64,000 bases of DNA from a bacterium. Its GTDB lineage: Bacteria; Patescibacteriota; Minisyncoccia; UBA6257; JAGOQP01. This document shows positions 1-62,459 of the stretch, piece by piece; position 1 is the first letter of the stretch, and each line of letters starts with the position of its first letter. Position numbers and translations under genes: made by a program. The DNA lies in assembly GCA_021814695.1 (NCBI GenBank), contig JAKAHY010000002.1, positions 8,920 to 72,919 of the forward strand, read 5' to 3'. The notes beneath the pieces were generated by a model, which was not told the DNA's origin, ran no database searches, and saw nothing but the letters and a program-made list of their open reading frames with translations.

Positions 1-705
1 AAAATAATAACTATTGAAGATCCAATTGAATACCATCTGGAAGGGATAGAACAAACTCAAGTTGACGAAGAGGCGGGATATACGTTTGCCGGAGGTTTGC
101 GTTCGCTGATGAGACAGGACCCGGACGTAATACTCGTTGGTGAAATCAGAGACAGAGAAACTGCCGAGATATCTGTCCAAGCGGCTCTTACGGGACACTT
201 GGTCCTTTCAACTATTCACGCCAATGAAGCTTCCGGAGCCATTCCTCGGCTTTTGGATTTGGGAGTGAAAAATGTCAGTCTTGCTCCTGCGTTAAATCTT
301 TTGATTGCCCAACGTTTGGTGAGGCGTTTGTGCAAATATTGTAAAACGGAATCCGAAATATCCGATGAATTAAGAAAAAATATCGAAACTTTTGTAAATG
401 CAATGCCCGATAGAGTCGATAAAAAACATTATCTGGAGAACATGAAGACGTACAAAGTGGTCGGGTGTGAAAAATGCAACATGACCGGATATAAAGGCAG
501 GGTTGGAATTTATGAATTATTGGAGATAAGCAAAAAAATGCAGGACATGATAGTCCAAGGTTCGGGTCAGCTGGCGATAGAAGAGGAGATAAAAAATACC
601 GATTTTGTAAACGTGCAGCAGGATGGGGTATTGAAATTTATTTCGGGAATAACCACTCTTGAAGAAGTTGAAGGGGTGGCGGGTAAAATAAACTGGAAGG
701 CATAA
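1..705 (+). CDS. Type II/IV secretion-system ATPase (GspE/PilB family), C-terminal part; the 5' end lies outside the window
   Basis: Frame 1 is open from nt 1 (KIITIEDPIEYHLEG...) and runs into ORF 97..705. It has RQDPDVILVGEIRD and TGHLVLSTIHAN boxes and a C-terminal CxxC...CxxC (CKYCK, CEKCNMTGYKGR). It is paralogous to 59608..61344. Confidence 0.85.
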   Translation, partial: KIITIEDPIEYHLEGIEQTQVDEEAGYTFAGGLRSLMRQDPDVILVGEIRDRETAEISVQAALTGHLVLSTIHANEASGAIPRLLDLGVKNVSLAPALNLLIAQRLVRRLCKYCKTESEISDELRKNIETFVNAMPDRVDKKHYLENMKTYKVVGCEKCNMTGYKGRVGIYELLEISKKMQDMIVQGSGQLAIEEEIKNTDFVNVQQDGVLKFISGITTLEEVEGVAGKINWKA

Positions 706-1289: not shown

Positions 1290-1796
1290 CTATTTTCCTT
1301 TCATTATTTGCATTATGAGGCCTCTTCCTCCCGGTCTTATTGTTGTTGTAACCTGATAATCTGCACTGATCATTTTTATAAAATCGTTGAATCTTTTTCT
1401 GGCCCAATCCTGATTGTATTTCTCCCTGCCCCTTAAGGCCATCATTATTTCAACTTTATTTCCTTTCTCAAGAAATTCTTCCGCCTGGAGTGCTCTGATT
1501 TTAAGATCGTTATCGGCAGCTCTTGGAGTTATTCTTACCTGTTTTAACTCTCCGGTTGGTTTGTGCGCACGCTTCTTCTCCTCTTTTCTTTGTTGATATC
1601 GGAATTTATCGTAGCTGATTATTTTTACTACCGGCGGTTTGATATTAGGTGCGATTTCAACCACATCCAGCCCTTTTTCTTCGGCTAGTGCAAGTGCCTC
1701 AGAGAGTTTCATAACGCCCAAATTAGCTCCTGCTTCGTCAACCACGCGCACTTCTGATGCCGTAATTCTTTGGTTGATTCTGACGTAGTTATCGAT
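1290..1796 (-). CDS. infC: Translation initiation factor IF-3, with an inferred non-canonical start codon
   Basis: The ORF track starts at GTG 1751 (MRVVDEAG...). The frame stays open upstream and encodes IDNYVRINQRITASEVRVVD, which is the conserved IF-3 N-terminal RIN..I....VR segment. There is no ATG, GTG or TTG in that stretch. ATC at 1794-1796 is my best guess for the start. Confidence 0.8.
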   Translation of the reverse strand: MDNYVRINQRITASEVRVVDEAGANLGVMKLSEALALAEEKGLDVVEIAPNIKPPVVKIISYDKFRYQQRKEEKKRAHKPTGELKQVRITPRAADNDLKIRALQAEEFLEKGNKVEIMMALRGREKYNQDWARKRFNDFIKMISADYQVTTTIRPGGRGLIMQIMKGK

Positions 1797-1873
1797 GGTG
1801 AGTGGCGTTACTGTTTTTAACGTCCATTAGATTAACACACAAATAAGCCGTTTGCAATACTTTTGCGGCTGAT

Positions 1874-1903
1874 AAAAAAAGCCCACCGGTGTTCTGGTGG
1901 GGC
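1874..1903 (-). terminator. Rho-independent terminator of the GC-rich minigene
   Basis: On the minus strand: GCCCACC-agaacacc-GGTGGGC followed by TTTTTTT. Confidence 0.75.
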
Positions 1904-1930
1904 GCCTCGTTGGAGGCGGTTGGGAAGCGC

Positions 1931-2152
1931 TTAGCCGCGCTTCGCTTTGGAGGATGCCGAGACCTTGTGAGTCCCGGCGACGGCCACGCCGCGGTTGGCG
2001 GTGGCCAGGTCGGCCTGAGTCCTCCGCTTGGCCGCCCGGTTCGCGTGCTTGACGCTGTGACGGTCCTTGGGCGCGGTCTTGCCGCAGCGCCCGTTGGGGT
2101 GGCGGTTGCCGCCACCCGAAACCCGACAGTGACACAGTTCGCACACGGCCAT
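1931..2152 (-). CDS. Small basic Cys-containing protein (73 aa) of unknown function; GC-rich and probably foreign
   Basis: GGGAGG lies 6 nt upstream of the ATG. By hand count, 63 of 73 codons end in G/C, in an AT-rich genome. It has 4 Cys (CxxCxC...C) and is K/R/A/G-rich. It has its own promoter and terminator. The N-terminus MAVCELC only faintly recalls the L28 family. Confidence 0.6.
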   Translation of the reverse strand: MAVCELCHCRVSGGGNRHPNGRCGKTAPKDRHSVKHANRAAKRRTQADLATANRGVAVAGTHKVSASSKAKRG

Positions 2153-2190
2153 ATTACACCTCCCTTGTCGTTTGATTTACCGCTTTTTAT

Positions 2191-2219
2191 AACATAGCAT
2201 AACTAACTACATTTGTCAA
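2191..2219 (-). promoter_or_regulatory. Sigma-70-type promoter of the GC-rich minigene
   Basis: On the minus strand: TTGACA (2214-2219), a 17-nt spacer, then TATGTT (2191-2196). Confidence 0.55.
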
Positions 2220-2229
2220 TATTTATGGG

Positions 2230-2256
2230 AAAACAAAATCACCCGCAAGGGGTGAT
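2230..2256 (-). terminator. Terminator downstream of the GIY-YIG unit
   Basis: On the minus strand: ATCACCCC-ttgc-GGGTGAT followed by TTTGTTTT. Confidence 0.7.
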
Positions 2257-2265
2257 CTTATTTTT

Positions 2266-2290
2266 GTGGAGATGGGAGAGTTGGCTCCGA
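2266..2290 (-). repeat. Duplicate of the tmRNA 3' end (T-loop end, T-stem 3' strand, acceptor 3' strand)
   Basis: The minus strand reads TCGGAGCCAACTCTCCCATCTCCAC. The genuine tmRNA end at 2672-2697 reads GAGTTCAACTCTCGCCATCTCCAC. About 19 nt are shared, with one 1-nt indel. Confidence 0.8.
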
Positions 2291-2530
2291 CTAAACTAAA
2301 TGCTTGTTTCTAAAAGCTATTCCCGAACCACTTTTCAGATATTTTTCAAAGTTGATCGCCTGTTCCTTGTTATGAAAAGTGCAGTGCCAAGCAATAATAA
2401 ATGGCGCTCTACTTGAGCTATATTTGGAACCATAACTATTATGTTCCAATAGTCTTTTCTTAATATCAATTGTGATGCCCGTATAGAAACTCCCATCTTT
2501 TAAACTGCGAAGAATATAGACAAAATACAT
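2291..2530 (-). CDS. GIY-YIG (URI-domain) nuclease family protein, minimal 79-aa form
   Basis: It has MYFVYILRS...GSFYTGITIDIKKRLLEHN (GIY..YIG..R..H-N) and a later E (NKEQA). A TATAAT box (2541-2546) lies 10 nt before the ATG, giving a very short leader. Confidence 0.85.
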   Translation of the reverse strand: MYFVYILRSLKDGSFYTGITIDIKKRLLEHNSYGSKYSSSRAPFIIAWHCTFHNKEQAINFEKYLKSGSGIAFRNKHLV

Positions 2531-2671
2531 ATTATCTATAATTATATGGCCCTCCTTCGCATAAAGCTACGGAGGACTCACTACTCGCACCATAAAACTC
2601 CCCAGATGGGGAGTTTTATTGCAATGCTTCTTGTGCAAGGAGTGCTTGCACTACGAAGCCTTGGCGAAGTA
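2531..2671 (-). other. Hairpin-rich leader ('type B' motif) between the tmRNA and the GIY-YIG ORF
   Basis: It contains CTTCGCCAAGGCTTCGTAGTGCAAGC, a terminator-like AAAACTCCCC-atct-GGGGAGTTTT, and CCTCCGTAGCTTTATGCGAAGGAGG. The first and last motifs recur after tRNA-Gly(UCC), at 47838-47943 and 48066-48174. Confidence 0.6.
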
Positions 2672-2988
2672 GTGGAGATGGCGAGAGTTGAACTCGCGTC
2701 CAGAAAGAGGGATTGAAAGCGTCTACGGGCGTATCTTCTTTTGGAAGCTGATTTGCTTTCTGATTGTCCCTACGGATACGAAAGCGCTTTCCGTGGGTAA
2801 GCCTCAAATATAACACCGGCGATTTCCCCATGAGACATCGGGAGCCGATGGCTTACGCACGAACTAAAAAGTTCTTAAGCGTATGCAAGTGCTACATTTC
2901 TGTTAGCAGATTTGTTTTGGCGGATTTACAAGTCGCCGCTTGACCCGCAACTTTCAAAGAACTCTATCTGTCAAAGCCCAGCATCCCC
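2672..2988 (-). ncRNA. ssrA: tmRNA (SsrA), about 317 nt
   Basis: The 5' GGGGATGCTGGGCTTTGAC pairs with the 3' ...CATCTCCAC, giving G3:U70. The T arm is GCGAG-TTCAACT-CTCGC. An internal tag frame GCT AAC AGA AAT GTA GCA CTT GCA TAC GCT TAA encodes ANRNVALAYA* (2875-2907), which resembles E. coli ANDENYALAA. It is adjacent to smpB. Confidence 0.88.
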
Positions 2989-3426
2989 TTAGGCAATATG
3001 TTTTCTTACTTGGCGCTCGGTTTCCCTTTTTTTAATCGTTTCTCTCTTATCCGTTTTCTTCTTGTGAACGCCCAGTCCTATTTCAAGCTTTATTTTACCG
3101 CGCTTGTTATACAGCTTAAGGGGCACCAGAGTCAAGTTTTTGGATGATGCTTGACCGACAAGAGCGATAATTTCCGACTTTTTTGCCAAAAGTCGGCGCG
3201 ATCGGCGAGGATCGAAATCTTTGGGTGTATTTTTCTCCTGGTAGGGGCCAATTGTTGCGCCAACCAGCCAAAGCTGTCCTCCATAAATTTTAACCAACGA
3301 CCCGACAACACTGGCTTTACCGGAGCGGATAGCTTTAGCCTCATGGCCCAAAAGTTCAATTCCGGCATTTAAAGTGTCGGAAATTTCGTAATCAAAATAG
3401 GCTTTTTTGTTTTGGATTGATTCCAT
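2989..3426 (-). CDS. smpB: SsrA-binding protein SmpB
   Basis: It has NKKAYFDYEI...GIEL.G.E.K and a basic C-terminal tail. Its stop codon directly abuts the tmRNA 5' G. Confidence 0.93.
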   Translation of the reverse strand: MESIQNKKAYFDYEISDTLNAGIELLGHEAKAIRSGKASVVGSLVKIYGGQLWLVGATIGPYQEKNTPKDFDPRRSRRLLAKKSEIIALVGQASSKNLTLVPLKLYNKRGKIKLEIGLGVHKKKTDKRETIKKRETERQVRKHIA

Positions 3427-3469
3427 CTGTTTATTTATGATAGTGCCTTGTGGGATTTTTTTGCAAGCG

Positions 3470-3480
3470 ATGTGATATAA
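3470..3480 (+). promoter_or_regulatory. Extended -10 promoter TGTGATATAAT (copy 1 of 4)
   Basis: TGTGATATAAT sits within a conserved GCAAGCGATGTGATATAATGAAACAAAT block, 18 nt before ATG 3499. No Shine-Dalgarno sequence is present. Confidence 0.65.
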
Positions 3481-3498
3481 TGAAACAAATAAAAAACT

Positions 3499-5643
3499 AT
3501 GAAAAAATCTTCATTAATCGTGGTCATTTTGCTTGTTGTGGCAAGCGTAGGAATGACCGTCATCTTTTCAAATCAAGTGTCGATAAAGGGATTTCTATCG
3601 AGCGTTTATTCTACTGCATCAGGCAGAAATCATATACAGCTGGCAAACGCTCAGTCCTTGGGACAGGGGGTTGTAGTTTTTAAAGCGCAATTTGGCCATT
3701 TGGAAGCAACCGGCCAAGTTGTCTCCGGTATTTCCGGACTAGCGGGGCTGCCGGTGACAAAATTTGTTCCCGACAGAGACCTTTCGGATTCTGAAAAAAA
3801 GCAGGTTGAAGTAAACATCACCGAAGAGAACACCGTTTTCGGATTTATTGTGGCAAAAAACGTTTCATTAGGGCAGGGAATCGGTTTTAACATTCCCCAA
3901 GGAGAAGTTTATAACTACGGTTTTTATGTGAATTCCGACATCCTTCCTCAAGGATGGACATATAACTCTTCTTGCGTAGAGACGGGAGGAAATATTAAAT
4001 TATCTGCCGGCCAACAAAGCGAATGCACGATAGGTTTTTATCTGAAACCAACGCCTGCGCCGGTTACTCCTCCCGCTTCGACGTCCACTCCCGTCTCACC
4101 TCAGGAAGGAGCGTCAGGTACCGTTATTAGTGAAGATTCCGGTTCTGGATCGCTGCAGTTTGTAAAAAATATTTTGGACTTAAGTACGGGGTGGAAAAAC
4201 CCCGGATCGGATAAAATATTGGACGCAAAAATCGTTGAATTATACGGAAAGAAATTTCTTATTGTTTCGACTCAAAACAAACATTTGCTTGTTTACGATG
4301 CTTCAAACCAGTTTTCGCCGGTTCTTTTGAAAGATAATGATTTATCAGGCAGTAACGTGTCGGCGTTTTATCTTGTGGTTTTAGATAATTTCAATTACGT
4401 ATTTGCCTGGGGAGGAAACTCTGCCAACTACGGATCTTTTAAGATTGAACAAGACGGATCTGCGTCTCTGGTAAAAAGTTACAAACCTGACCAATATAGC
4501 GTTACTCAACCGAATTTGGTTTTCGGGTTGTTTAGAGGGTTAGACGGTAAAGCGTATGGATTTGGAGGGAACGGGGGCGATGGATGGCTAACTATTTATG
4601 ACGTGTCCGATCCGGCAAACATCAGCGAAATTGGATCATATCAAGATGGCTTAGTCGGGAATCACTGCGGCAATTATGGTCTGATTGGATTGGACAGGCC
4701 GCTTCAATGGAATACTTCTCAACAAGGGAACAAGCTTTATCTGGTAACTCATGCGGACCAGTGCGTCCAGCGGCTGCATACTTCCGGAGACGCCAGAATT
4801 TATATTTTTGACGTTTCTGATCCAAAAAATCCGCAGCTTTCCCATCAATATGAGCTTTCCGGTTCTTTTAACCACATACCTTCGGACGCGACTAAGGCCG
4901 AACAGACATTTCTTTTTGGCGGGATCGCCGACATTGCCGTTGATTCAAATTCGGGTAAGGTTTTTGATTTTTACAGGACGGTTTTTGATTGGCAGGGGCC
5001 ATCCTGGTCTCAGATAGCAAACATAGTGCATGGTACTTTGTTTAGATACAGAACCGGACTGGTCACTCTTTCACTGCAATCGGACGGTTCTCTAAAAGAA
5101 TTGTCGCGGGCTTTATTGTGCGAACAAAAGGGCCCAATGTATGATGGTGGCGGTCCGCAATATTATCGATGCGGCGACGTGGATGGAAACGACAAAAATA
5201 CCCAAGGCGGATATGATTATTCGGCAAGAAATTCTCAACAAAATTACAACGGAGTTTTTCTCCTCAGTGGGCCGGGAAATAGCGGTCAGGTGGGCTTACT
5301 AAGGAGTGATAATAGTTTTGTTGTCATTCCCGATACCGCCGGAGAGATGACTAAATTTAAGACGGCTATTAAAGATTCATCTTATTATTCGAATATCTAT
5401 AATCCCGCTATCAATGGTGTTGTGACCCAGGTTGACAGTAAAACATTTGCCATCTATCAATTTGATAGTTATTCGTTAAGCGTCGTTAAGGTTTTGTTGT
5501 CGCAATCTCTTGTGGGGGGATCGAAAAATCCCTCTCCTCCAGTGACCGGAGTTGCGCCTTCGGCAAACGTACCACTAACATCACCCGCATTTTCATTTAA
5601 TGCGCTCCTGAACATCTTCAGAAGGATACTTAACAACTACTAA
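3499..5643 (+). CDS. Secreted/surface LVIVD-repeat (beta-propeller-type) protein, paralogue 1
   Basis: It has an N-terminal hydrophobic signal/anchor. LVIVD-like repeats include LTIYDVSDPANISEIG, IYIFDVSDPKNPQLS and LLVYDASNQFSPVL. An S/P/T linker is followed by the C-terminal tail PAFSFNALLNIFRRILNNY. Confidence 0.8.
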   Translation: MKKSSLIVVILLVVASVGMTVIFSNQVSIKGFLSSVYSTASGRNHIQLANAQSLGQGVVVFKAQFGHLEATGQVVSGISGLAGLPVTKFVPDRDLSDSEKKQVEVNITEENTVFGFIVAKNVSLGQGIGFNIPQGEVYNYGFYVNSDILPQGWTYNSSCVETGGNIKLSAGQQSECTIGFYLKPTPAPVTPPASTSTPVSPQEGASGTVISEDSGSGSLQFVKNILDLSTGWKNPGSDKILDAKIVELYGKKFLIVSTQNKHLLVYDASNQFSPVLLKDNDLSGSNVSAFYLVVLDNFNYVFAWGGNSANYGSFKIEQDGSASLVKSYKPDQYSVTQPNLVFGLFRGLDGKAYGFGGNGGDGWLTIYDVSDPANISEIGSYQDGLVGNHCGNYGLIGLDRPLQWNTSQQGNKLYLVTHADQCVQRLHTSGDARIYIFDVSDPKNPQLSHQYELSGSFNHIPSDATKAEQTFLFGGIADIAVDSNSGKVFDFYRTVFDWQGPSWSQIANIVHGTLFRYRTGLVTLSLQSDGSLKELSRALLCEQKGPMYDGGGPQYYRCGDVDGNDKNTQGGYDYSARNSQQNYNGVFLLSGPGNSGQVGLLRSDNSFVVIPDTAGEMTKFKTAIKDSSYYSNIYNPAINGVVTQVDSKTFAIYQFDSYSLSVVKVLLSQSLVGGSKNPSPPVTGVAPSANVPLTSPAFSFNALLNIFRRILNNY

Positions 5644-5657
5644 AAATTTAAAATAAA

Positions 5658-5685
5658 GCCCCCTGTAAATACAGGGGGCTTTTTG
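5658..5685 (+). terminator. Rho-independent terminator
   Basis: AGCCCCCTGT-aaat-ACAGGGGGCT followed by TTTT. Confidence 0.8.
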
Positions 5686-5687
5686 AA

Positions 5688-5698
5688 TGTGATATAAT
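5688..5698 (+). promoter_or_regulatory. Extended -10 promoter TGTGATATAAT (copy 2)
   Basis: This is the same 11-mer. The hexamer ends 7 nt before ATG 5706, which implies a leaderless or nearly leaderless mRNA. Confidence 0.6.
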
Positions 5699-5705
5699 GA
5701 AACAA

Positions 5706-8321
5706 ATGAAAAAAACATTACTCATCGGGTTTATTGTGGTCGGCATTGTAAGCTTTTCGGCATTTACCGCGCATGCTCAGTCGGTCAATTATCTTAGTAA
5801 ATTTTTTGCAGATGTCTACGGAGCGTTTTTTGGGAATTCCCAAACGCAAAAAGTTGACGCCCAAACAGTGGGTAATGGAACACTTACTATTCATGCTCAG
5901 ATATGTCAGACGCTCGGGAATTTCGAAAATCCAAGCAGTGCGACCTGTTCTGGTACTCCTCGCGACCCCAATTCTACGGAGTCTCCGTTATTTGTTTATG
6001 ATGTCCAGCGCATAGTTGGGAATGGAGCGAGCGCTCAAGTTACCACAGTTCTTTCAGGTATCGGTCCCGGACAAAGTTATTCGTTACCGGCGAATACTCC
6101 AAACGCTAGTAATAATAACAGAGATGAGTACGTGATTGTGTTTAAGGGGGCACCGACAAATTATTTGTACGTGAGACAAGGAGGAAATTTTGATTTGCCC
6201 TATAAATTTTCAATTTCTTCCGGACAAAATACTCAAGTAAATATTCCTTATGTTATTTATACGGCGATTGAATCAACGGGTCCTGTTGGCACTACTGTTA
6301 CCGCCGATATTGTTGATGGCAATGGAAATTTTGTCAGAGCGCTGACGGCTTCAGAAATTCAATCGGTATCCTTTGACATCCAGCATTCGGTTCCGGCCAC
6401 CGGAGGATATGTCGGATCGCATGCGAACAATTTTGATACTCAAGTTTCTTCGGGAAAATTAAATACTTCATATCAGCTTGCGACCTATGTCCATTCCGGT
6501 TCAATTTTGACAAATATTAAGCCACCATCCGGTTACGTAGTCAGATCAATTAAGCCGGGAACATATTTTGATCCTACTGATGACGTTACTATTCATTTTA
6601 CCAAGTCTCCTGTTTCGTCTCAGGTTCAAAAAGTTGATCAAATGCTCTATGTTCCTAATGGAATTAGCTATGTAAAAAAAATAGCTCAAACATATTCGGA
6701 CAATGAATACAAATATTCGAATCTTGACGTTGATTTATTTGCTTATTATGGAAACAATAATCGTCCTTTTCCCTTGAACTGGACAGTTGCCAAATATTCG
6801 GGAGTTCCTTATTTGTTTATGAATGGAGCAGGAAAGATAGTTATTTATAATATTTCCGATCCTAAAAATCCCAAACAAGTTAGTGAATATGTTCTTTCCG
6901 GTTTGGAAAAATTTAATCAATACAAAGATCGTCAGGGAAATACTTATGGACAGTGTTCTCCTAACCAAGAAGGTACTCATGATTTTATAACTGGAGCCGG
7001 TAAAGTTTTTGCTCTTGATGATTCCCCTTATCTTTTGATTGACATTCAGAGACCGGGTGGGCCAGGCCCTGGAGGGACGGCAGTTTTGTCCTTAGATCCT
7101 TCAACTATGGCCATAACCGCCTATCCTCAATGGACCGAGTGTAACAGTGGTCAAGATACTCCCGGAACCGCTTTCGGAATGTATAAAGGAAGTGACGGAA
7201 ATACTTATTTTATTTCCCAATTCCCGAATAATGCATATGATACGGGTGGAGTAGATACCGGGAATATTGGTATTTACACAATCAATTCTGCTGGTATTGC
7301 CAATAAAGTTGTCGTTCTCAGCGGAATGTCCGGGATTGCTCCGAGTTTGGATTATTCTAATGGAACAATCTCTGTTGTTTCCGTTGGAAGTAAAAAATAT
7401 CTTATTGGTAATGGAAAATCATCTATCGCAAACATAAATTCGACCAGTGCACCAATTTATATTTACGATATTTCCAATCCAAAAAATATAATCAAAATCA
7501 ATCAACAGATCACGGTGTCTACGTCTGGGTCCGGCAGATTAAAAATTGACGAACAAGCCAATCGTATGTATGTTCAGTCATCCATTCCAAATCCTGCCGC
7601 AACATCAACTTCGTACACCATCCCCAAAACATTACCTATTTGGCAGGTATATGACTTGAGTGTTTTGCCCAGTACTCCAAAATTAATTGCTACTTATAAC
7701 AAACCAACCGACCTACTTAATTCAAGTCAAGTGAATGCTGATTTTTCTCAAATTACCAAGAGATTAAATATTGCATCGTCAGGTAATCTTGTGGATATAA
7801 ATAATTCTTCTTTCACTTACGGCGCCTACGGATATTCTTCTTCACTCCAGTTGATAAATGTTTCAAATAATTTAGCTTATATATCACTGTATACAAACGG
7901 AAAAAACCCTTGGGATACGATTGCCAATCAAGCCGGAGTAACGGACGGAAGCGAATACGGGACCAATGCTATTCAATTTATAGTTGACGTGTCCAATGCG
8001 TCCAGTCCCAAAATACTTGGAATGATATTCGGGCATACGGAATATTCTGCTTACGGACTTTCCGCCGGCGGATGGTTTGATGTTCCTCTTTACGGAAGTA
8101 TCTATAACTATAACGGATATATTTACCGAGCCAATTTCCGCATCGCTGATGTATGGAAATTGGGGAATCCTCCGGCCCAAAGTACGGGAGGTGCTGGAAG
8201 TGGGGCTGGTGCGAGCGGCACTGGAACTACCGAAGGAGGATCTGCGCCATCATCAGTTCAATCTCCATTTTCTTTCAGTTCTCTTTTGAAGATATTCCAG
8301 AGAGTGTTTAATAATCAATAA
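5706..8321 (+). CDS. Secreted/surface LVIVD-repeat protein, paralogue 2
   Basis: I prefer the start at MKKTLLIG, by analogy with its paralogues and because ATG 5697 lies inside the -10 box. Repeats include IVIYNISDPKNPKQVS, IYIYDISNPKNIIKI and FIVDVSNASSPKIL. A G/S/A/T linker is followed by the tail SPFSFSSLLKIFQRVFNNQ. Confidence 0.8.
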   Translation: MKKTLLIGFIVVGIVSFSAFTAHAQSVNYLSKFFADVYGAFFGNSQTQKVDAQTVGNGTLTIHAQICQTLGNFENPSSATCSGTPRDPNSTESPLFVYDVQRIVGNGASAQVTTVLSGIGPGQSYSLPANTPNASNNNRDEYVIVFKGAPTNYLYVRQGGNFDLPYKFSISSGQNTQVNIPYVIYTAIESTGPVGTTVTADIVDGNGNFVRALTASEIQSVSFDIQHSVPATGGYVGSHANNFDTQVSSGKLNTSYQLATYVHSGSILTNIKPPSGYVVRSIKPGTYFDPTDDVTIHFTKSPVSSQVQKVDQMLYVPNGISYVKKIAQTYSDNEYKYSNLDVDLFAYYGNNNRPFPLNWTVAKYSGVPYLFMNGAGKIVIYNISDPKNPKQVSEYVLSGLEKFNQYKDRQGNTYGQCSPNQEGTHDFITGAGKVFALDDSPYLLIDIQRPGGPGPGGTAVLSLDPSTMAITAYPQWTECNSGQDTPGTAFGMYKGSDGNTYFISQFPNNAYDTGGVDTGNIGIYTINSAGIANKVVVLSGMSGIAPSLDYSNGTISVVSVGSKKYLIGNGKSSIANINSTSAPIYIYDISNPKNIIKINQQITVSTSGSGRLKIDEQANRMYVQSSIPNPAATSTSYTIPKTLPIWQVYDLSVLPSTPKLIATYNKPTDLLNSSQVNADFSQITKRLNIASSGNLVDINNSSFTYGAYGYSSSLQLINVSNNLAYISLYTNGKNPWDTIANQAGVTDGSEYGTNAIQFIVDVSNASSPKILGMIFGHTEYSAYGLSAGGWFDVPLYGSIYNYNGYIYRANFRIADVWKLGNPPAQSTGGAGSGAGASGTGTTEGGSAPSSVQSPFSFSSLLKIFQRVFNNQ

Positions 8322-8333
8322 TAATTTGAAACA

Positions 8334-8358
8334 ATCCCCCTAGCTGGGGGATTTTTTT
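8334..8358 (+). terminator. Rho-independent terminator
   Basis: ATCCCCC-tagct-GGGGGAT followed by TTTTTT. Confidence 0.8.
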
Positions 8359-8366
8359 GCAAGCAA

Positions 8367-8377
8367 TGTGATATAAT
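8367..8377 (+). promoter_or_regulatory. Extended -10 promoter TGTGATATAAT (copy 3)
   Basis: GCAAGCAATGTGATATAATAAAACAAAT lies 19 nt before ATG 8397. Confidence 0.65.
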
Positions 8378-8396
8378 AAAACAAATAAAAATAACC

Positions 8397-10580
8397 ATGA
8401 AAAAATATTCATTAATTGTGATTATCTTACTTGTTGTTGCAAGTATAGGGATTACCGCTATCTTTTCAAGTCAAGTGTCGATAACCGGATTTCTTTTGAG
8501 CGTTTACTCAACTGTTTCGGGGAGCAATCAAATACAGAGAGTAAATGCACAAACGACAGGCCAAGGAACCATATTATTCCAAGGCCAATTCGGTCATCTT
8601 GAATCGACCGGAAAGGTCACTACCGGAATTTCGGGCTTATCCGGACTTCCGGTGATGAAATTTGTTAAAGACCGTGACCTATCTAGCGATGAAAAAAATC
8701 AGATTAGAGTGGATGTTATTGAACATAACACTCCTTTTGAATTTGTAGTTGCAAAAAATATTTCGCTTGGAGAGGGTGTTAATTTTAATATTCCCGTAGG
8801 TTCGACATATAGATATAGTTTTTATGTTCACCCCGACTCGATTCCCTCCGGATGGGTTTATTATTCCGGTTGTTTAGAGACCGATGGGAATGTTTCGGTA
8901 CTGGCCGGTCAGCAAAGTACTTGCAGCATAGGATTTTATTTAAAGCCCGAAACAATCTCACCCCCTCCGGTCACATCAACATCTACGATCACGTCTACTC
9001 CTTCGGTAGGTGTTTCGGGAACTGTTGTCGGTGAAGATGCCAGCGCAGGATCGTTGCAGTTTGTAAAAAACGTTTTGGATTTAAGCTCACAAAGAAAGGG
9101 CATTATTTATGGAGTTTTGGACGCAAGAACCGTTAATTTGTATGGAAAAAATCTTCTGATAGTTGCTAGAGGTGGAGCTTACTCTGCTACCACTCCAACC
9201 TGGCATATGCTTGTTTATGATATAACCGATCCGCTTGCCCCGGTTCTTTTGAAGGATAATGATATGTCCGGAAGTGGCATAATCTATAGTTCTCCAATGA
9301 CCGGTTTGGCAGTGCTTGATGGCTTTAATTATGTATTTGTCCGTGGAAATGTCGGTTACGGTTCGTTTAAAATTAATCAGGACGGAACTGCGTCTCTTGT
9401 GAAAAGCTATAAATATTCTGAAGTTCAGCAGATACAGACAGATTTAATCAGGGGATTGTTCAACGGTCTGGATGGAAATATATACGGCTACGGAGGGTTT
9501 GTGCAGGATGGAGGACTCGTGCTTTATAACGTTTCCGATCCCGCTAATATTATTCAAGTTGGAACGTATACTAATGGTCTTGAACCAGCGATTGCCATCT
9601 ATGGACAAATTGGATTGAATCGCCAGAGCACTTGGGGCGTTGTTAAAGAAGGAGGCAAACTTTATCTTATTGCTCATGCGGACCAGTTGGTTCTGCGCCT
9701 TCATACGGATTATGATGGAATGATTTATGTTTTTGATGTGTCCAATCCGGCAAGTCCGCAGCTTTCACATATCTATAAAATGTCCAGCTCCTTTAATCAC
9801 CTTCCTTCCGATATGACTTCGTATGAGAAGATGTTTCTTTACGGAGGAGAAGCTAATATATCGGTTGATCCAATATCAAATAGAGTATTTGATTTTTACA
9901 GAACGGTTTTTGATTGGCAGGGACCCAATCAGCTTAAGATAAAAGACATTCCTAAAGGAGCCTTGTTTCGTTATAGAAATGGAATAGCCGTTCTTTCAAT
10001 AGGAATCGATGGTTCTTTGAAATCAAGTTCCAGTAACATATTATTGTGCGAAAGAATAGCCATTCAAGATAATGGGACGTCAGGCGAAGATAAATGTGAT
10101 ACAAAGAGTCCCGAAACGGTTGGGGGATATTATAGTTCCAGTCTTTATGGAAACAGGAATCCTCAAGAAAATTATAACGGAGTATTTCTTCTTGGCGACG
10201 TGAATAATGTCGGACATGTAGGGCTGTTAAAAAGCGATGGTAGTTTTGTTATCATACCCGATCCAACCGGAGAAATGCTTAAATTCAAATCTGTCTTGGC
10301 TGACCCGTCGTATTATTCCGATCCTGGTTTTCGTTCGTCTCCAATCAATGGCATTGTCACTCAAGTTGATAGCAAAACCTTTGCAATATTTCAGATTGAT
10401 AATTATTCCATAAGTGTTACAAAGCTAAATCTATCACAATCCATAACGAGCGTAACACAAAAATCTTCGCCACCTACCACAAATGCCCCTAGTTCATTAA
10501 ATACATCATCTCCTACTCAGACTCCATTTTCCTTCAGCTCGCTCCTGAGAATATTTCAGAGGGTGTTCAATAGTCAGTAA
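8397..10580 (+). CDS. Secreted/surface LVIVD-repeat protein, paralogue 3
   Basis: It is collinear with paralogue 1 along its whole length. Repeats include LVLYNVSDPANIIQVG and MIYVFDVSNPASPQLS. The tail is TPFSFSSLLRIFQRVFNSQ. Confidence 0.8.
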   Translation: MKKYSLIVIILLVVASIGITAIFSSQVSITGFLLSVYSTVSGSNQIQRVNAQTTGQGTILFQGQFGHLESTGKVTTGISGLSGLPVMKFVKDRDLSSDEKNQIRVDVIEHNTPFEFVVAKNISLGEGVNFNIPVGSTYRYSFYVHPDSIPSGWVYYSGCLETDGNVSVLAGQQSTCSIGFYLKPETISPPPVTSTSTITSTPSVGVSGTVVGEDASAGSLQFVKNVLDLSSQRKGIIYGVLDARTVNLYGKNLLIVARGGAYSATTPTWHMLVYDITDPLAPVLLKDNDMSGSGIIYSSPMTGLAVLDGFNYVFVRGNVGYGSFKINQDGTASLVKSYKYSEVQQIQTDLIRGLFNGLDGNIYGYGGFVQDGGLVLYNVSDPANIIQVGTYTNGLEPAIAIYGQIGLNRQSTWGVVKEGGKLYLIAHADQLVLRLHTDYDGMIYVFDVSNPASPQLSHIYKMSSSFNHLPSDMTSYEKMFLYGGEANISVDPISNRVFDFYRTVFDWQGPNQLKIKDIPKGALFRYRNGIAVLSIGIDGSLKSSSSNILLCERIAIQDNGTSGEDKCDTKSPETVGGYYSSSLYGNRNPQENYNGVFLLGDVNNVGHVGLLKSDGSFVIIPDPTGEMLKFKSVLADPSYYSDPGFRSSPINGIVTQVDSKTFAIFQIDNYSISVTKLNLSQSITSVTQKSSPPTTNAPSSLNTSSPTQTPFSFSSLLRIFQRVFNSQ

Positions 10581-10597
10581 AAATTAAAAATAAAATT

Positions 10598-10630
10598 GCT
10601 CCCATTTTAACGGATGGGGGCTGTTTTTTT
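10598..10630 (+). terminator. Rho-independent terminator
   Basis: GCTCCCAT-tttaacgg-ATGGGGGC followed by TGTTTTTTT. Confidence 0.75.
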
Positions 10631-10651
10631 ATCTTTAAATCTCAAAAAAAT

Positions 10652-10668: not shown

Positions 10669-13600
10669 ATGTTGAGAAATCTTAAACACTTTAATCCGCC
10701 GGAAATTGAGGAAAAAGTTTTACAGCTTTGGAAAGAAAAAGGGATATTTCAAAAAACACTCAAAGTTCCAAAAGGAAAAAAGGCCCTGCCTACCGGCAGG
10801 CAGGCAAAAATATTTCGGTTTTGGGAAGGTCCACCGACAGCCAATGGCCGTCCCGGAATTCATCATATTTTAGCCCGTTCTTTTAAGGACGTTGTTTTGC
10901 GTTTTAAAACGATGCAAGGGTATACGGTTCCCCGTAAGGGTGGTTGGGATACTCATGGATTGCCCGTTGAAATCCAGGTTGAAAAGCAGCTCGGATTTAA
11001 AACAAAAAAAGATATAGAAGATTACGGAATAGCCGCATTCAACCAAAAATGTAAAGAATCAGTCTGGCTTTATCAAAGCGAATGGGAAAAATTGACCGAA
11101 CGCATGGGTTTTTGGCTGGATTTGAAAAATCCTTATGTCACATACCACAAAGATTACATAGAGTCGCTTTGGTGGATCATCAAACAAGTTTGGGATAAAG
11201 GGTTGATGTATCAAGGGCATAAAGTGGTTCCTTGGTGTACTCGCTGCGGGACAGCTCTTTCTTCCCATGAATTGGCTCAAGGATACAAAGAGCTTACCGA
11301 TACTTCTGTTTACATAAAATTTAAACTTCTTCCAAAACAAAAAATCGGTTCTTTTATAACCGATGATAAAACATACATCTTATCCTGGACGACGACTCCT
11401 TGGACTTTGCCCGGAAACGTCGCTTTGGCAGTCGGAAATAAAATCAAATATATTGCGGCAAAAATCGGAGGAGAGACTTTTATTATTGCGGAAGATCTTG
11501 CCGGATCGGTTTTGGGATCGGAAAATCATAAAGTTATCAATGAATTTAAAGGCGAGTCGATTTCAGGGAAAGAATACGCCCCACTTTTTGAAATTGCGGC
11601 ATTAAAAAAACCGGAATCGTACAAGGTATATCCGGCTAAATTTGTGACAACCACCGATGGAACGGGGGTGGTGCACACGGCCGTAATGTACGGAGAGGAC
11701 GATTATAACCTGGGAAAAGAAGTCGGACTTCCTCAGCATCATACGGTTACCGAACAAGGAACTTTCACAAAAGACGTTAAAGGATTTGAAGGGATGTACG
11801 TCAAAGCCAAGGAGACCGAGGATAAGATACTAGATTATCTAAAGAAAAATAATTTCCTTTTGCAAACACAGGCTTATACCCATGAATATCCTCATTGCTG
11901 GAGATGTGGAACTCCGCTTTTGTATTACGCGCGCAGTTCATGGTTTGTAGCGATGTCGAAACTGAAAGATAATCTGATCGAAAGCAACCAGGGAACCAAC
12001 TGGGTTCCGGCACATATCAAAGAGGGCAGATATGGAGAATGGCTCTCCGAAATTAAAGATTGGAATTTTTCACGGGAAAGATATTGGGGCACCCCACTGC
12101 CGATCTGGACGTGCGAGAATTGTGGAAACCATAAAGCTGTTGGAAGTTATAAAGAGCTTTCGGAACATCTTCCTTCTAGTACCAACAGATATATTCTTGT
12201 CCGTCATGGAGAAGCGGGGCAAAATGTTTCCAATATAATCAACTGCGACCCCAAAGATAAGGATAAATACCCGTTAACAACCAATGGAATAATCCAGGCG
12301 AAGAGAACTTCCCTGAGCCTCAAGAAAAAAATAAAAAAAATAGACGCGATTATCTCGTCGGATTTTATTCGGACAAAGGAAACCGCAAAAATTATCGGCG
12401 ATGAATTTGGAATAAAGAAAATAATCACCGATCCGCTTTTGAGGGAAGTTAACATGGGAGATTTTAACGGGGACAATGTTTCTCGTTACCACGAGTACTT
12501 TTCTTCGCTTGAAGAAAAATTTATGAAACGGACCCCTAACGGAGAAAACCTCAGAGATCTGGCCGCAAGAAGCTACGATTTTATACAAAAATGTGAAAAA
12601 AAATACAGCGGGAAAACTATTGTTGTGGTAGGGCATGAATATCCGCTGTGGATGGCGGAGACCGTTCTTTCTGGATGGAGTCAGGAAGAATCGGTGTCGG
12701 AAAAAGAAAAAAGAGGTCCCGATTTTATAGAAGTCGGAGGATTTGATTCCGTTACTTTTGTTCCGGCATCAAGAGATGAACAGGGAATCTGTGATTATCA
12801 TAAGCCATATGTGGATTCAATCAGCATCCCTTGCGAAAAATGCGGAAAAAAGATGAATCGAGTTAAAGAAGTTGCCGACGTATGGTTTGATTCGGGGTCA
12901 ATGCCATTTGCCCAAGATCATTATCCTTTTGAGAAGGGTGATAAAGTCGGGAAAGCGCCCCAATCGTTTCCGGCCGATTATATCTGTGAGGCAGTCGATC
13001 AGACCCGCGGGTGGTTTTACACTCTTATGGCCGTCTCTACATTATTGGATTATGAAACGCCGTATAAAAACGTCGTTTGCCTAGGGCATATAAACGACAA
13101 GCATGGACAGAAAATGTCCAAATCAAAAGGGAACATTGTTGATCCATGGATGATAATAGATAAATATGGCATTGATGCCGTTAGGTGGTATTTTTACACC
13201 GTTAATGCTCCGGGGGAGCCGAAGAATTTTGACGAGAATGAGGTTGCTAAAGTACTGAGAAAATTCAGCATGACTCTTTATAATTCGTTCGCGTTTTTGG
13301 CGCTTTATGGAAAACAGAAGGTAAGTATCCAAAAGAAACCTTCATCGCCGAATATTTTGGACAGGTGGATTTTGGCAAGGCTAAATCAAACAACTGTCGG
13401 AGTTTCGGACAAAATGGACGCATATGATTTCTTGGCTACCGGACAAATAATAGAATCGTTTATTGACGATCTTTCCAGATGGTACATTCGCCGATCGAGA
13501 AAGAGATTCCAAAAAATTTCGGATAAATCGGATTGGGGTACGGCGACCGGTGTTTTGGCGTATGTTTTGGCCGAATTTTCAAAAGTGATCGCTCCCTTTA

Positions 13601-14223
13601 CTCCATTTTTCGCCGAAGCTCTTTACAGATCCATAGCCGAATTTTGTTCGTTTAGCGCAAAAGAATCCGTTCATCTCGAATCATGGCCGGAGGGCAGGGT
13701 TTTTAATGACGATGCGGTTATGTCGGAAGCCATGAAACAGATAAGAGACTACGCCAGTGCTGTTTTGGCAAAAAGAGCCGAAGTTGGAATCAAAGTGCGG
13801 CAGCCTTTGAGCTTGTTGAAAATAAGAAGCATTAAGTCTAAAGAAAAAGACTCTAAACAATTATTAGAAGTGTTAAGGGATGAAGTTAACGTCAAAGAAG
13901 TTGTGATTGATCCAAAAATAGAAAATGAATTTGAGTTGGATATCAACATCACTCCGGAACTTAAAGCCGAAGGAATTTTGAGGGAAATAGCCCGGACAAT
14001 TCAGGAATTGAGACAAAGTTCGGCATGTGTTCCCAAGGATAAAATAGAAGTTCGCATTTCCGGACCTGCCGACATTGAAGCGGTGGTCAAAAACGGACAA
14101 GCCACGCTTTGCCAATACGTTAACGCCAAAAATATTCTTTTCGGTAAGAGCGGTAAATTTGATTCCGAAATTGAAACCAAAATTGATTCGTCAAAAATTT
14201 GGATAGGTTTAAGAAAAATATAA
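10669..14223 (+). CDS. ileS: Isoleucine--tRNA ligase (type-2-like) with an inserted histidine-phosphatase-family domain
   Basis: It has EGPPTANGRPGIHH, KMSKSKGN, the editing-domain region, and WTCENCG ... CEKCGKKMNRV..DVWFDSGSMP. Between the two Cys pairs (about nt 12175-12790) lie RYILVRHGEAGQN, SSDFIRTKETA, REVNMGDFNG and VVGHEYPL, which is the RHG...H signature of histidine phosphatases. Confidence 0.93.
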   Translation: MLRNLKHFNPPEIEEKVLQLWKEKGIFQKTLKVPKGKKALPTGRQAKIFRFWEGPPTANGRPGIHHILARSFKDVVLRFKTMQGYTVPRKGGWDTHGLPVEIQVEKQLGFKTKKDIEDYGIAAFNQKCKESVWLYQSEWEKLTERMGFWLDLKNPYVTYHKDYIESLWWIIKQVWDKGLMYQGHKVVPWCTRCGTALSSHELAQGYKELTDTSVYIKFKLLPKQKIGSFITDDKTYILSWTTTPWTLPGNVALAVGNKIKYIAAKIGGETFIIAEDLAGSVLGSENHKVINEFKGESISGKEYAPLFEIAALKKPESYKVYPAKFVTTTDGTGVVHTAVMYGEDDYNLGKEVGLPQHHTVTEQGTFTKDVKGFEGMYVKAKETEDKILDYLKKNNFLLQTQAYTHEYPHCWRCGTPLLYYARSSWFVAMSKLKDNLIESNQGTNWVPAHIKEGRYGEWLSEIKDWNFSRERYWGTPLPIWTCENCGNHKAVGSYKELSEHLPSSTNRYILVRHGEAGQNVSNIINCDPKDKDKYPLTTNGIIQAKRTSLSLKKKIKKIDAIISSDFIRTKETAKIIGDEFGIKKIITDPLLREVNMGDFNGDNVSRYHEYFSSLEEKFMKRTPNGENLRDLAARSYDFIQKCEKKYSGKTIVVVGHEYPLWMAETVLSGWSQEESVSEKEKRGPDFIEVGGFDSVTFVPASRDEQGICDYHKPYVDSISIPCEKCGKKMNRVKEVADVWFDSGSMPFAQDHYPFEKGDKVGKAPQSFPADYICEAVDQTRGWFYTLMAVSTLLDYETPYKNVVCLGHINDKHGQKMSKSKGNIVDPWMIIDKYGIDAVRWYFYTVNAPGEPKNFDENEVAKVLRKFSMTLYNSFAFLALYGKQKVSIQKKPSSPNILDRWILARLNQTTVGVSDKMDAYDFLATGQIIESFIDDLSRWYIRRSRKRFQKISDKSDWGTATGVLAYVLAEFSKVIAPFTPFFAEALYRSIAEFCSFSAKESVHLESWPEGRVFNDDAVMSEAMKQIRDYASAVLAKRAEVGIKVRQPLSLLKIRSIKSKEKDSKQLLEVLRDEVNVKEVVIDPKIENEFELDINITPELKAEGILREIARTIQELRQSSACVPKDKIEVRISGPADIEAVVKNGQATLCQYVNAKNILFGKSGKFDSEIETKIDSSKIWIGLRKI

Positions 14224-29233: not shown

Positions 29234-30157
29234 ATGCTTTTTTCGCGAATAACAAAAAAAGATATTTTGATATTTATCGTCGTTTTCCTGGTTTTGGGCG
29301 CTATTTTTGTTTTACATAAGCCCACATCGTTTATCGGAGATAATTATGCCGTTGTGGAAAATTCGAGCATCCCCAAACTTCAGGTGGCTACCTCATTTCC
29401 ATTGGCGGCTGATTGGATAAATTCCGTCGGCAAAGACCGGGTTCAGGTACAGGTTTTTGCATCACCCACGGATGATGGGCTGATTCAGTGGCTAAAAAAG
29501 CCCTCTTCGGATGCTCCACAGGAGACCAAAGTTTTTGTTTCTATGGGAAATAATTTTGACCAATGGGCCCAAGAACTGTCCGGGGGAGATCCCAAAATAA
29601 AAATTGATGTTATGATTTTGAGTAATTTTGCGTCTCCGGTTAAAACATATCCTACTTTATCGGGTTCTTCTAAGAACGCTGAAAATTCCTCACCTTACTA
29701 TTGGCTTTCACTTGAGAATGTCCGGGAGTCAGTTCAGGGCATTGCCCGGGAATTTGGAAAAGTTGATGCTGCCGATAGGGAATATTTTATAAACAATGCA
29801 TATGAATATTCTGTCAGACTCGATTCGCTGCTGCACGAAACTGTGGATGTTTTGGGAAGTATCAGAAATACCGCAGTGGCACTTGATGGCGCCAGATGGG
29901 CTCCTTTTGTAGACAGTTTGCAGTTGCGGGTTGTCGGGTTGTTTGATTCAAACTCCACAGAAGACATCAAGGCTATTCTTAAAAAAAATAAAATCACCAC
30001 AGTTGTGACCGATAGCGATTCGAACGGCCGATTTTTGGAACCGGCATTATCCGGGACGACCGTATCGGTTGCTGTCATAGATCCCTGGGGACTTAATAGC
30101 AATAACTACGTGGATTTTATGCGCTCTAATATTTCGGAACTGATGAAAGCGCTTTAG
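29234..30157 (+). CDS. ZnuA/TroA-like solute-binding-protein homologue lacking the metal-ligand histidines
   Basis: VATSFPLAADWINSVGKDRVQVQV aligns with IATTIFPVFDIARNIVGDKIQVIQV of the SBP at 43054. SPH and DPHYW of that protein are replaced here by SPTDDG and SPYYW. No ABC partner genes are adjacent. Confidence 0.5.
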   Translation: MLFSRITKKDILIFIVVFLVLGAIFVLHKPTSFIGDNYAVVENSSIPKLQVATSFPLAADWINSVGKDRVQVQVFASPTDDGLIQWLKKPSSDAPQETKVFVSMGNNFDQWAQELSGGDPKIKIDVMILSNFASPVKTYPTLSGSSKNAENSSPYYWLSLENVRESVQGIAREFGKVDAADREYFINNAYEYSVRLDSLLHETVDVLGSIRNTAVALDGARWAPFVDSLQLRVVGLFDSNSTEDIKAILKKNKITTVVTDSDSNGRFLEPALSGTTVSVAVIDPWGLNSNNYVDFMRSNISELMKAL

Positions 30158-41457: not shown

Positions 41458-41467
41458 AAATAATTTT

Positions 41468-42436: not shown

Positions 42437-42519
42437 TTTAATTAAATTTTAAACCCTTGCCAGTCGTTCATTTTTGACGTATTGTTTGGTTAGTATTTTT
42501 CAAACGAAAGGAGACAATA

Positions 42520-43005
42520 ATGGACGCCGACGATGTTGTTATCAATGATAGTATGGAAGTCGTTTATGAAGATGATTATCACATCAAGAAATGCCCGACT
42601 GATGGATTTATCCAATTCAGCGAAGTGGTTGAATTAGAAGACCAGAAAATTTACAGATCGGTTCTTTTGGATGAATCTAAAAAAGAGATAGCGGTCGGAT
42701 TTTTCCACCGTTCGGAAATTAAACCATTTGATGCGGTTTATGTAAAAATCATGGACGAAAAAAAGGGTGGATATTTGGTTTATTACAATGCCACATCCCA
42801 AAGCTATGGGTTTATGCAGGGGGGCGCTGTCTGGATTCCCAAGGATTTGTTATCGGTAATGACAAATCGCACAATCAGAGGTATTGTCGATGGCAGAATG
42901 GTAACTCTCAAGTGCAAATGCGGGGAAGAACTGGTGATGGCTGCTGGCCTGCCGAGAACTTTGGCCGCGTGTCCCAAGTGCAAACGTGCTGATCATGTTG
43001 TTTAA
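42520..43005 (+). CDS. Hypothetical protein with a C-terminal CxC...CxxC zinc-ribbon-like motif
   Basis: AAAGGAG is the ribosome-binding site. The C-terminal motif is LKCKCGEE...ACPKCKRADHVV. I do not recognise the family. Confidence 0.55.
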   Translation: MDADDVVINDSMEVVYEDDYHIKKCPTDGFIQFSEVVELEDQKIYRSVLLDESKKEIAVGFFHRSEIKPFDAVYVKIMDEKKGGYLVYYNATSQSYGFMQGGAVWIPKDLLSVMTNRTIRGIVDGRMVTLKCKCGEELVMAAGLPRTLAACPKCKRADHVV

Positions 43006-43053
43006 TTAATATATTTTTGGGCGCGAAGCGCCCTTTTTTGTTACAATAAAATA

Positions 43054-43938: not shown

Positions 43939-43942
43939 AAAA

Positions 43943-44653: not shown

Positions 44654-44677
44654 CAAGCAATAATCGATATTCGATAA

Positions 44678-58142: not shown

Positions 58143-58155
58143 TTTTAAATTTTTC

Positions 58156-58719: not shown

Positions 58720-58720
58720 T

Positions 58721-59305: not shown

Positions 59306-59308
59306 TTT

Positions 59309-59605: not shown

Positions 59606-59607
59606 AT

Positions 59608-61344: not shown

Positions 61345-61382
61345 ATTAGCCAATAAATATTCGATAAGTTATACTTAAATAT

Positions 61383-62453: not shown

Positions 62454-62459
62454 ATAGAA

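Follow-up and report, generated by a model that had tools for sequence, protein, structure and literature searches.

A conserved amphipathic C-terminal tail on predicted LVIVD-like surface propellers of a narrow bacterial lineage, with a possible role as a PBP5-like tether

Three tandem genes (genes 1 to 3), all on the plus strand of a 64-kb stretch of Patescibacteriota contig JAKAHY010000002.1 (GenBank assembly GCA_021814695.1; "the window" refers to this whole stretch), encode LVIVD-like β-propeller proteins that end in a shared short peptide, here called the tail. Its 17-residue consensus is [FY]S[FI]xx[LI][LI]x[I]Fx[R][IVL][LF]N, the tails are 17 to 20 residues long, and the helix proposed for the family is put at 17 to 25 residues. 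We tentatively read the tail, at a little under even confidence, as a non-covalent tether comparable to the C-terminal helix of Escherichia coli PBP5, which would lie in the plane of a membrane or another anionic surface at the end of a wall-spanning stalk and would not be a general sorting signal. The initial annotation of this locus had suggested a sorting, anchoring, or secretion signal. Of these, anchoring appears to be favored by the evidence, while neither general sorting nor secretion was borne out.

An exhaustive search of 1.84 billion cluster representatives with a tail-only profile identified 12 clusters (E ≤ 1e−3), with all matches at the extreme C-terminus. Every one of the 12 comprised propeller-type proteins, which came from related metagenome-assembled genomes and represented at least four subfamilies with bodies ∼20 to 30% identical. 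Full-length searches of 5.8 billion proteins returned three to seven sequence relatives per query: gene 3 identified itself, gene 1, and P0003 (26% identity), and gene 2 identified six orthologues (61 to 67% identity). All full-length relatives of genes 2 and 3 terminate in the tail. At least nine further contigs or metagenome-assembled genomes encoded propeller proteins that end in the tail, among them relatives only 26% identical. Within the window, the tail pattern matched three times across the six frames and nowhere else, and no further open reading frame (ORF) carried a tail either there or in ∼150 kb of related loci (∼210 kb in total). The tail reaches beyond the three paralogues yet stays within a single protein superfamily of a narrow lineage. 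This supports a real, selected peptide module, removes the objection anticipated in the initial annotation that the tail might be limited to three recent paralogues, and argues against a general sorting or secretion signal.

Several additional searches contributed little. A word-indexed protein search using a 44-amino-acid (aa) stalk-and-tail alignment gave 111 word-sharing candidates with none at E ≤ 10 and was uninformative. A degenerate tail DNA pattern compared with genome contigs gave at least 120 matches, those listed being T-rich chance matches with no real tail among them, a result that is silent on absence. In metagenome contigs, 600 pattern matches obtained from a tail alignment were all discarded by a tblastn filter. 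A stricter DNA pattern compared with metagenome contigs yielded, among the matches listed, chance matches only and adds nothing on distribution.

No transmembrane segment could be identified in the tail, which has no hydrophobic run long enough to cross a membrane, and the sorting-signal models in Pfam and NCBIfam did not match the proteins at E ≤ 0.1. Both results agree with the initial annotation. A tail profile compared with PDB sequences produced two insignificant matches only (E ≥ 0.085). Neither a sortase-like nor any other processing enzyme was found among the annotated ORFs of the window or in the related loci, and no neighboring gene was conserved with the family in the related loci examined. 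A cleaved C-terminal sorting signal, recognized by a sortase-, exosortase-, or rhombosortase-like enzyme and leading to covalent attachment to the envelope, would suit the extreme C-terminal position after a linker, the conserved motif, and the presence of the tail on several diverged paralogues per genome. Such a signal is nonetheless very unlikely here, given the lack of a transmembrane helix, of tripartite architecture, of any sorting-domain match, and of a candidate processing enzyme, together with the restriction to one protein superfamily and an internal second copy of the tail in one protein (L122, described below). The same observations, and the lack of a conserved partner gene nearby, count against a general sorting or secretion signal.

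Specific known signals were also considered and rejected. The tripartite signals (LPXTG/sortase, PEP-CTERM/exosortase, GlyGly-CTERM/rhombosortase, and PGF-CTERM/archaeosortase) and the ∼80-aa C-terminal domain of T9SS had no model match at the threshold given above, and signals of the tripartite class are expected on many unrelated families, whereas the tail was found on one propeller superfamily. A type I secretion signal is an uncleaved C-terminal signal on proteins that have no N-terminal signal peptide, whereas all members of this family begin with MKK and a hydrophobic Sec-type N-terminus.

AlphaFold models of the gene 2 and gene 3 proteins both contain the tail as an isolated helix following ∼30 disordered residues, although with a pLDDT of ∼30 the helix is of low confidence. 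In the three window proteins a proline stands immediately ahead of the motif, and the helix would therefore have at most 17 residues, not enough to cross a membrane and few for an autonomous coiled coil. The helical hydrophobic moment of the tails is 0.39 to 0.74 with a mean hydrophobicity of ∼0.1 to 0.3, and the moment calculated for strand periodicity is 0.1 to 0.3. The same calculation for the E. coli PBP5 anchor gave a moment of 0.50 and a hydrophobicity of 0.37. Acidic residues occupy 1 of 223 positions in distinct tails compared with 8.1% in the bodies, basic residues 15% compared with 6.6%, and aromatic residues 18% compared with 11%, statistics that count homologous tails as independent and so overstate significance. 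Alignments combined with helical wheel angles assigned every variable tail position to the polar side of the helix, and conservation covers the hydrophobic face, an invariant Ser, and the [FY]S[FI] start. The amphipathic character described in the initial annotation is sustained. Its "nearly invariant" 18-aa C-terminus holds for genes 2 and 3 (16 of 18 residues identical) but not for gene 1, which differs at 8 or 9 of the 18.

Since F-S-F alternation can in principle be read as a β-strand, the tail could also be the closing "velcro" strand of the last propeller blade. This is extremely improbable: the last confident strand and the tail are set apart by a compositionally biased linker of 29 to 43 residues, the helix is detached from the propeller in both models, and the tail has been duplicated or swapped along with its linker (L122 and P0017). 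Because both models, low in confidence as they are, put an isolated helix beyond a disordered segment, the tail is predicted not to be a strand of that blade, the second circumstance that the initial annotation named as fatal to its idea.

Across 127 protein pairs with body identities of <35% (mean, 21%), the 15-residue tail core was 57% identical. Genes 2 and 3 share 24% identity in the body and 93% in the tail, and P0015 and P0016, likewise from one genome, share 21% and 100%; for gene 2 and its orthologue P0005 the values are 70% and 67%. In the window, the tails are only ∼70% identical as DNA, and between genes 2 and 3 the 18 codons show 9 synonymous versus 2 non-synonymous changes, which reflects purifying selection on the tail peptide. 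A different pattern was seen in L253 and L122. There, the final 100 to 130 nucleotides (nt) are 97 to 100% identical between tandem genes that are otherwise unalignable, and identity of 73 to 97% over the 30 nt around the stop codon fades within a few tens of nt beyond it. Gene conversion of the 3′ end accounts for the near-identical tails in these two loci, and in some genomes recombination has homogenized the tail or swapped it between tandem paralogues.

These findings raise an explanation that gives the peptide no function of its own: the 5′ ends (promoter and signal) and 3′ ends (stalk, tail, and terminator) could be homology arms for shuffling the heads, maintained by gene conversion. 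The near-identical 3′ ends in L253 and L122 are consistent with this, as are the chimeric P0017 and a slot between smpB and ileS where genomes with IleRS proteins 70 to 88% identical carry one, two, or three genes drawn from different subfamilies. However, the divergence and synonymous bias of the window tails, and the retention of the motif in 26%-identical relatives that lack DNA similarity, make it distinctly improbable. Recombination is real and explains the spread of the tail but not its retention.

Two rearranged family members were encountered. P0017 is a natural chimera, with a body 96% identical to L001a, the upstream paralogue of L001 (L001:7644-9893), and a linker and tail 100% identical to P0003, the downstream paralogue. 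In L122 (JGI Ga0453685_015647), a contig with three tandem tail-bearing genes, the type B protein at L122:1-1146 carries two tail copies, one internal (QFNQILLSFQSLLNIFKKISDES) and one terminal, with a second low-complexity linker between them. To judge from these sequences, the tail module can be exchanged (P0017) and duplicated (first gene of L122).

All three window proteins follow a five-part plan consisting of a predicted signal peptide or signal anchor, a β-sandwich, an LVIVD-like β-propeller, a low-complexity stalk, and the C-terminal tail. Genes 1 and 3 are collinear with 54% identity; gene 2 aligns with gene 3 in patches of ∼25% identity, and the best-scoring local segment between them is the tail (E = 8e−8). 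The Pfam LVIVD model (PF08309; gathering cutoff, 20.2 bits) matched gene 1 at 27.1 bits and gene 3 at 21.3 bits, recognizing one stretch per protein and not several tandem repeats of ∼42 aa, and did not match gene 2. Relatives were borderline for the same model (P0013, 22.1 bits; P0018, 19.7 bits), and an NCBIfam scan of the proteins gave no matches. Blade motifs of the xIYDVSDPxNP type are nevertheless present in all three genes. The AlphaFold models are of low to medium confidence (mean pLDDT, 51 for gene 2 and 57 for gene 3), with values of up to 80 to 93 in the blades. Both show the same order, namely an N-terminal hydrophobic helix with a juxtamembrane helix, a β-sandwich, four-stranded blades, a disordered segment, and the isolated C-terminal helix, and Foldseek comparison with PDB returned β-propellers only. 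The protein layout put forward in the initial annotation thus largely survives: the N-terminal signal or anchor is predicted in all members, paralogue 2 differs from the collinear paralogues 1 and 3, and an S/P/T/G linker of 32, 35, and 33 residues, respectively, precedes the tail. The LVIVD assignment stands for genes 1 and 3 but lacks Pfam support in gene 2, and the propeller is supported at the confidence of the two models.

Every member starts with MKK followed by a hydrophobic Sec-type segment, and a [VA]-x-A↓[QS] site lies ahead of the first domain in nearly all of them. In L001a and P0008 the signal peptide is short, looks canonical, and ends in IKA↓Q and VEA↓Q, respectively, whereas in genes 1 and 3 the site is ∼28 residues past the hydrophobic segment. 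Between the hydrophobic segment and this site, many members have a conserved N-terminal segment of 25 to 35 residues (window positions 3568-3651, 5778-5870, and 8466-8549 in genes 1 to 3, respectively), which is also present in relatives. Examples are SIxGFLxSVYST and VNYLSKFFADVYGAFFG. The segment is predicted to be helical and partly amphipathic and is loosely tail-like. Tail-like segments such as IKNLTNFIQSIQSIFSG in P0018 prompted the idea that this juxtamembrane segment is obligatorily paired with the tail. The pairing was ruled out, as the tail-bearing L001a, P0007-P0009, and P0016 do not have the segment and the tail hidden Markov model does not detect it.

As a tether, the tail could operate as follows. 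Transcription of each gene would start from a strong extended −10 promoter and give an mRNA with a short leader or none, and each protein would be exported by a Sec signal peptide, which may be cleaved, or by a signal anchor. The β-sandwich and the variable LVIVD-like propeller "head" that follows it would be displayed on the cell surface, with the stalk of 29 to 43 residues spanning the wall and keeping the propeller outside. The cationic, aromatic-rich amphipathic helix of 17 to 25 residues would then act as a non-covalent retention module, presumably lying flat in the outer leaflet of the cytoplasmic membrane or against some other anionic layer of the surface. In members with a canonically cleavable signal peptide, such as L001a and P0008, the tail would be the sole tether, since cleavage would leave no other means of retention. 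The constant placement of the tail, always extreme C-terminal and past a stalk of steady length, supports such a role. Further support comes from the predicted isolated helix, the PBP5-like hydrophobic moment, the residue composition, the variable positions on the polar side, purifying selection on the peptide, and the exchange and duplication of the module. Two tail copies in one L122 protein would raise avidity.

Several points weigh against a tether, among them the low confidence of the predicted helix and the inflated composition statistics. The amphipathicity itself is only moderately unusual, with 3 to 6% of shuffled tails matching the moment. In genes 1 and 3 the N-terminal hydrophobic segment is long (20 residues) and has no nearby cleavage site; these proteins may already be membrane anchored N-terminally, which would make a second anchor redundant. 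Tails are more alike within one genome than between orthologues of different genomes. Finally, conservation exceeds what plain amphipathicity would require (the invariant Ser and the [FY]S[FI] motif), and such sequence-specific conservation is explained by a particular protein partner no less well than by lipid binding.

These last points lead to the main alternative, itself doubtful, in which the tail is a protein docking or oligomerization helix that binds a shared partner (an S-layer, pilus, or receptor protein) or bundles the tails of paralogues into a multi-headed complex. It would account for the invariant Ser and FSF motif and for the within-genome similarity better than a tether does, as tails that are 93 to 100% identical on bodies that are 21 to 24% identical fit co-evolution with one genome-specific partner. 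Extended forms of the tail (LQNLQQSLFSFQNLLNIFKxI) are hydrophobic at every a/d heptad position, and the genes occur in tandem sets of two or three. However, the proline ahead of the motif limits the helix in the window proteins to a length short for an autonomous coiled coil, and the polar face consists of Q/N/S/K/R with nearly no acidic residues and therefore offers no e/g salt bridges for coiled-coil bundling. In addition, no conserved neighboring gene presented itself as a candidate partner in the loci examined, the slot contains just one tail-bearing gene in some genomes, and the within-genome identity in L253 and L122 is explained at the DNA level by gene conversion.

By their flanking sequences, the three genes are predicted to be separate transcription units. 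A 20-nt promoter block, TGTGATATAAT[G/A]AAACAAAT, has exactly three matches in the window, one upstream of each gene, versus ∼0.01 expected by chance, and includes a perfect extended −10 element, TGnTATAAT (TGATATAAT). No GGAGG-type Shine-Dalgarno sequence is present between this element and the ATG at any of the three genes. Because the element ends only 7 nt before its ATG, the gene 2 mRNA is predicted to be effectively leaderless. The gene 2 start at 5706 (MKK...) agrees with all orthologues; an alternative ATG at 5697 was rejected, as it falls within the −10 hexamer and all orthologues begin with MKK. Related loci have the same arrangement, with TGnTATAAT 9 nt ahead of the ATG. A role for the block as a genome-wide promoter was likewise dismissed, given that a handful of TGnTA[TA]AAT sites occur in the 64 kb while the 20-nt block is unique to these genes. 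Downstream of each stop codon lies a G+C-rich hairpin that leads into a T run. The shared promoter block, the short or absent leader without a Shine-Dalgarno sequence, and the individual terminators reported earlier were all recovered (Table 1). In L253 (GCA_021780155.1), the genes at 1437-3692 and 3664-6267 both begin too far upstream as deposited, one of them overlapping the gene before it; their true starts, as in the other loci, are the MKK codons that follow the TGCTATAAT extended −10 element by 9 nt.

Table 1. Positions of the three tail-bearing genes, their parts, and the flanking genes in the window
Feature	Position	Strand	Details
smpB	2989..3426	-	Left border of the conserved variable slot
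Promoter block, gene 1	3471..3490	+	Extended −10 TGATATAAT at 3473-3481; 17 nt to ATG
Gene 1	3499..5643	+	714 aa, type A; predicted signal/anchor, β-sandwich, LVIVD-like propeller, stalk, tail
Pfam LVIVD match, gene 1	4579..4644	+	aa 361-382; 27.1 bits
Stalk, gene 1	5494..5589	+	32 aa; low-complexity S/P/T/G
Tail, gene 1	5590..5640	+	FSFNALLNIFRRILNNY
Hairpin terminator, gene 1	5655..5687	+	Hairpin at 5655-5682
Promoter block, gene 2	5688..5707	+	Extended −10 at 5690-5698; 7 nt to ATG
Gene 2	5706..8321	+	871 aa, type B; N-domains unlike those of genes 1 and 3; propeller, stalk, tail
Predicted propeller, gene 2	6780..8033	+	aa 359-776 of the AlphaFold model
Stalk, gene 2	8163..8267	+	35 aa; G/S/A/T/P-rich
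Tail, gene 2	8268..8318	+	FSFSSLLKIFQRVFNNQ; model helix aa 857-870
Hairpin terminator, gene 2	8333..8360	+	Hairpin at 8333-8353
Promoter block, gene 3	8367..8386	+	Extended −10 at 8369-8377; 19 nt to ATG
Gene 3	8397..10580	+	727 aa, type A; 54% identity to gene 1
Predicted propeller, gene 3	9027..10427	+	aa 211-679 of the AlphaFold model
Pfam LVIVD match, gene 3	9714-9776	+	aa 440-460, within the predicted propeller
Stalk, gene 3	10428..10526	+	33 aa; S/T/P/N/Q-rich
Tail, gene 3	10527..10577	+	FSFSSLLRIFQRVFNSQ; model helix aa 713-726
Hairpin terminator, gene 3	10598..10631	+	Hairpin at 10598-10621
ileS	10669..14223	+	Right border of the conserved variable slot
Example of a tail peptide			PFSFSSLLKIFQRVFNNQ

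The trio occupies a conserved slot with variable content between smpB and ileS, in a wider neighborhood of housekeeping genes (L20, IF3, transfer-messenger RNA [tmRNA], glycolysis genes, RuvB, and RNase Y). Among the genomes that share the slot, it contains one gene in L250-252, two in L253 and L256, and three in the window, drawn from different subfamilies. A second slot, between the RNase H and IMPDH genes (L123, L124, L254, and L255), is occupied by one propeller gene with a tail, either P0007 or P0009; downstream in these loci are large ORFs without annotation (∼500 and >800 aa), which do not have the tail. A more distant genome has two tandem family genes at another site. An LCP (LytR_cpsA_psr) gene was found in related loci, which suggests a Gram-positive-like envelope. 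The shifting slot content between close relatives points to diversifying pressure on the propeller heads.

Taken together, the slots and the conserved gene ends allow a more elaborate proposal, in which a lineage-specific modular surface-display system combines interchangeable heads with the tail as an undescribed docking peptide for a specific envelope receptor or sorting component. The fixed slots (smpB-ileS and RNase H-IMPDH) may hold interchangeable propeller heads, which recombination may swap while the flanking cassettes stay constant, with the leaderless promoter and signal on the 5′ side and the stalk, tail, and terminator on the 3′ side. As a joint reading this is improbable, although if true it would mean that uncultured bacteria with small genomes anchor surface proteins in a new way.

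Other features of the window were recorded. Positions 1890-2150 form a ∼250-bp island of 71% G+C, compared with ∼42% in the window. It contains an ORF on the minus strand (1931-2152; 73 aa) that encodes a very basic protein and has a strong GGGAGGTG Shine-Dalgarno sequence and its own hairpin terminator. Pfam and Rfam scans of the island gave no match, related genomes have a GIY-YIG gene at its position, and it may be a recent foreign insertion. The tmRNA gene (2670-2988, minus strand) adjoins smpB, and its predicted tag peptide, EAYPRKALSYP, does not have the usual hydrophobic Ala-Ala-type terminus. IleRS carries an inserted histidine-phosphatase domain (His_Phos_1), an insertion kept in all related genomes examined. 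A type IV pilus cluster is located at 57048-63674 (PilM, PilN, a PilB-type ATPase, a PilT-type ATPase, and PilC), and the C-terminus of a further T2SSE ATPase lies at the start of the window (97-705). The region 38091-45487 is a metal/oxyanion transport cluster encoding a cation-efflux protein, a chromate transporter, an ArsP-type permease, and ZnuA/ABC/ABC-3 components; a second ZnuA is encoded at 29234-30157.

How uncultured small-genome bacteria build their surfaces and anchor proteins to them is largely obscure, and surface proteins are obvious candidates for contact with hosts, partners, and phages. Should the tail be no more than an amphipathic tether, the PBP5 principle would be modestly extended to a new protein family, whereas docking to a specific receptor would make it a new anchoring system. 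The conserved variable slot and the cassette-like gene ends are the more interesting part of the locus.

The closest functional parallel is PBP5, an exported enzyme that is held at the outer face of the inner membrane by an amphipathic helix formed from its last 18 residues (PMC2909392). As in E. coli PBP5/DacA (and in PBP6 and PBP4), the terminal 17 to 18 residues of an exported protein would form an amphipathic, aromatic-rich helix; neither system has a transmembrane segment or a cleavage motif, and the hydrophobic moments are similar. There is, however, no homology, the bodies being propellers here and a DD-carboxypeptidase in PBP5. Moreover, a stalk of 29 to 43 residues precedes the predicted helix in this family, and its motif is far more conserved than amphipathicity alone demands.

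The heads are best compared with the LVIVD (PF08309) surface propellers of archaea and bacteria, a repeat described from predicted surface proteins (PMC2447325). Genes 1 and 3 score above the Pfam cutoff, blade motifs occur in all three genes, and the structural matches in PDB are propellers only. The differences are that one repeat is recognized per protein and none in gene 2, and that the family is highly diverged, with three to seven relatives per query among 5.8 billion proteins. The family description (PMC2447325) covers the repeat itself, and the stalk-and-tail module is not part of it.

In overall construction, the proteins resemble the wall-anchored proteins of Gram-positive bacteria: a variable head follows the export signal, a low-complexity stalk leads to a conserved retention module at the C-terminus, and the paralogues stand in tandem with conserved ends. 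The Gram-positive proteins, however, have LPXTG, a hydrophobic transmembrane segment, and a basic stop-transfer tail, none of which occurs here; no sortase was seen in the window or the related loci, neither Gram_pos_anchor nor any NCBIfam model matched, and retention would be non-covalent. The three proteins are best filed as LVIVD-type surface propellers with a proposed PBP5-like terminal amphipathic tether.

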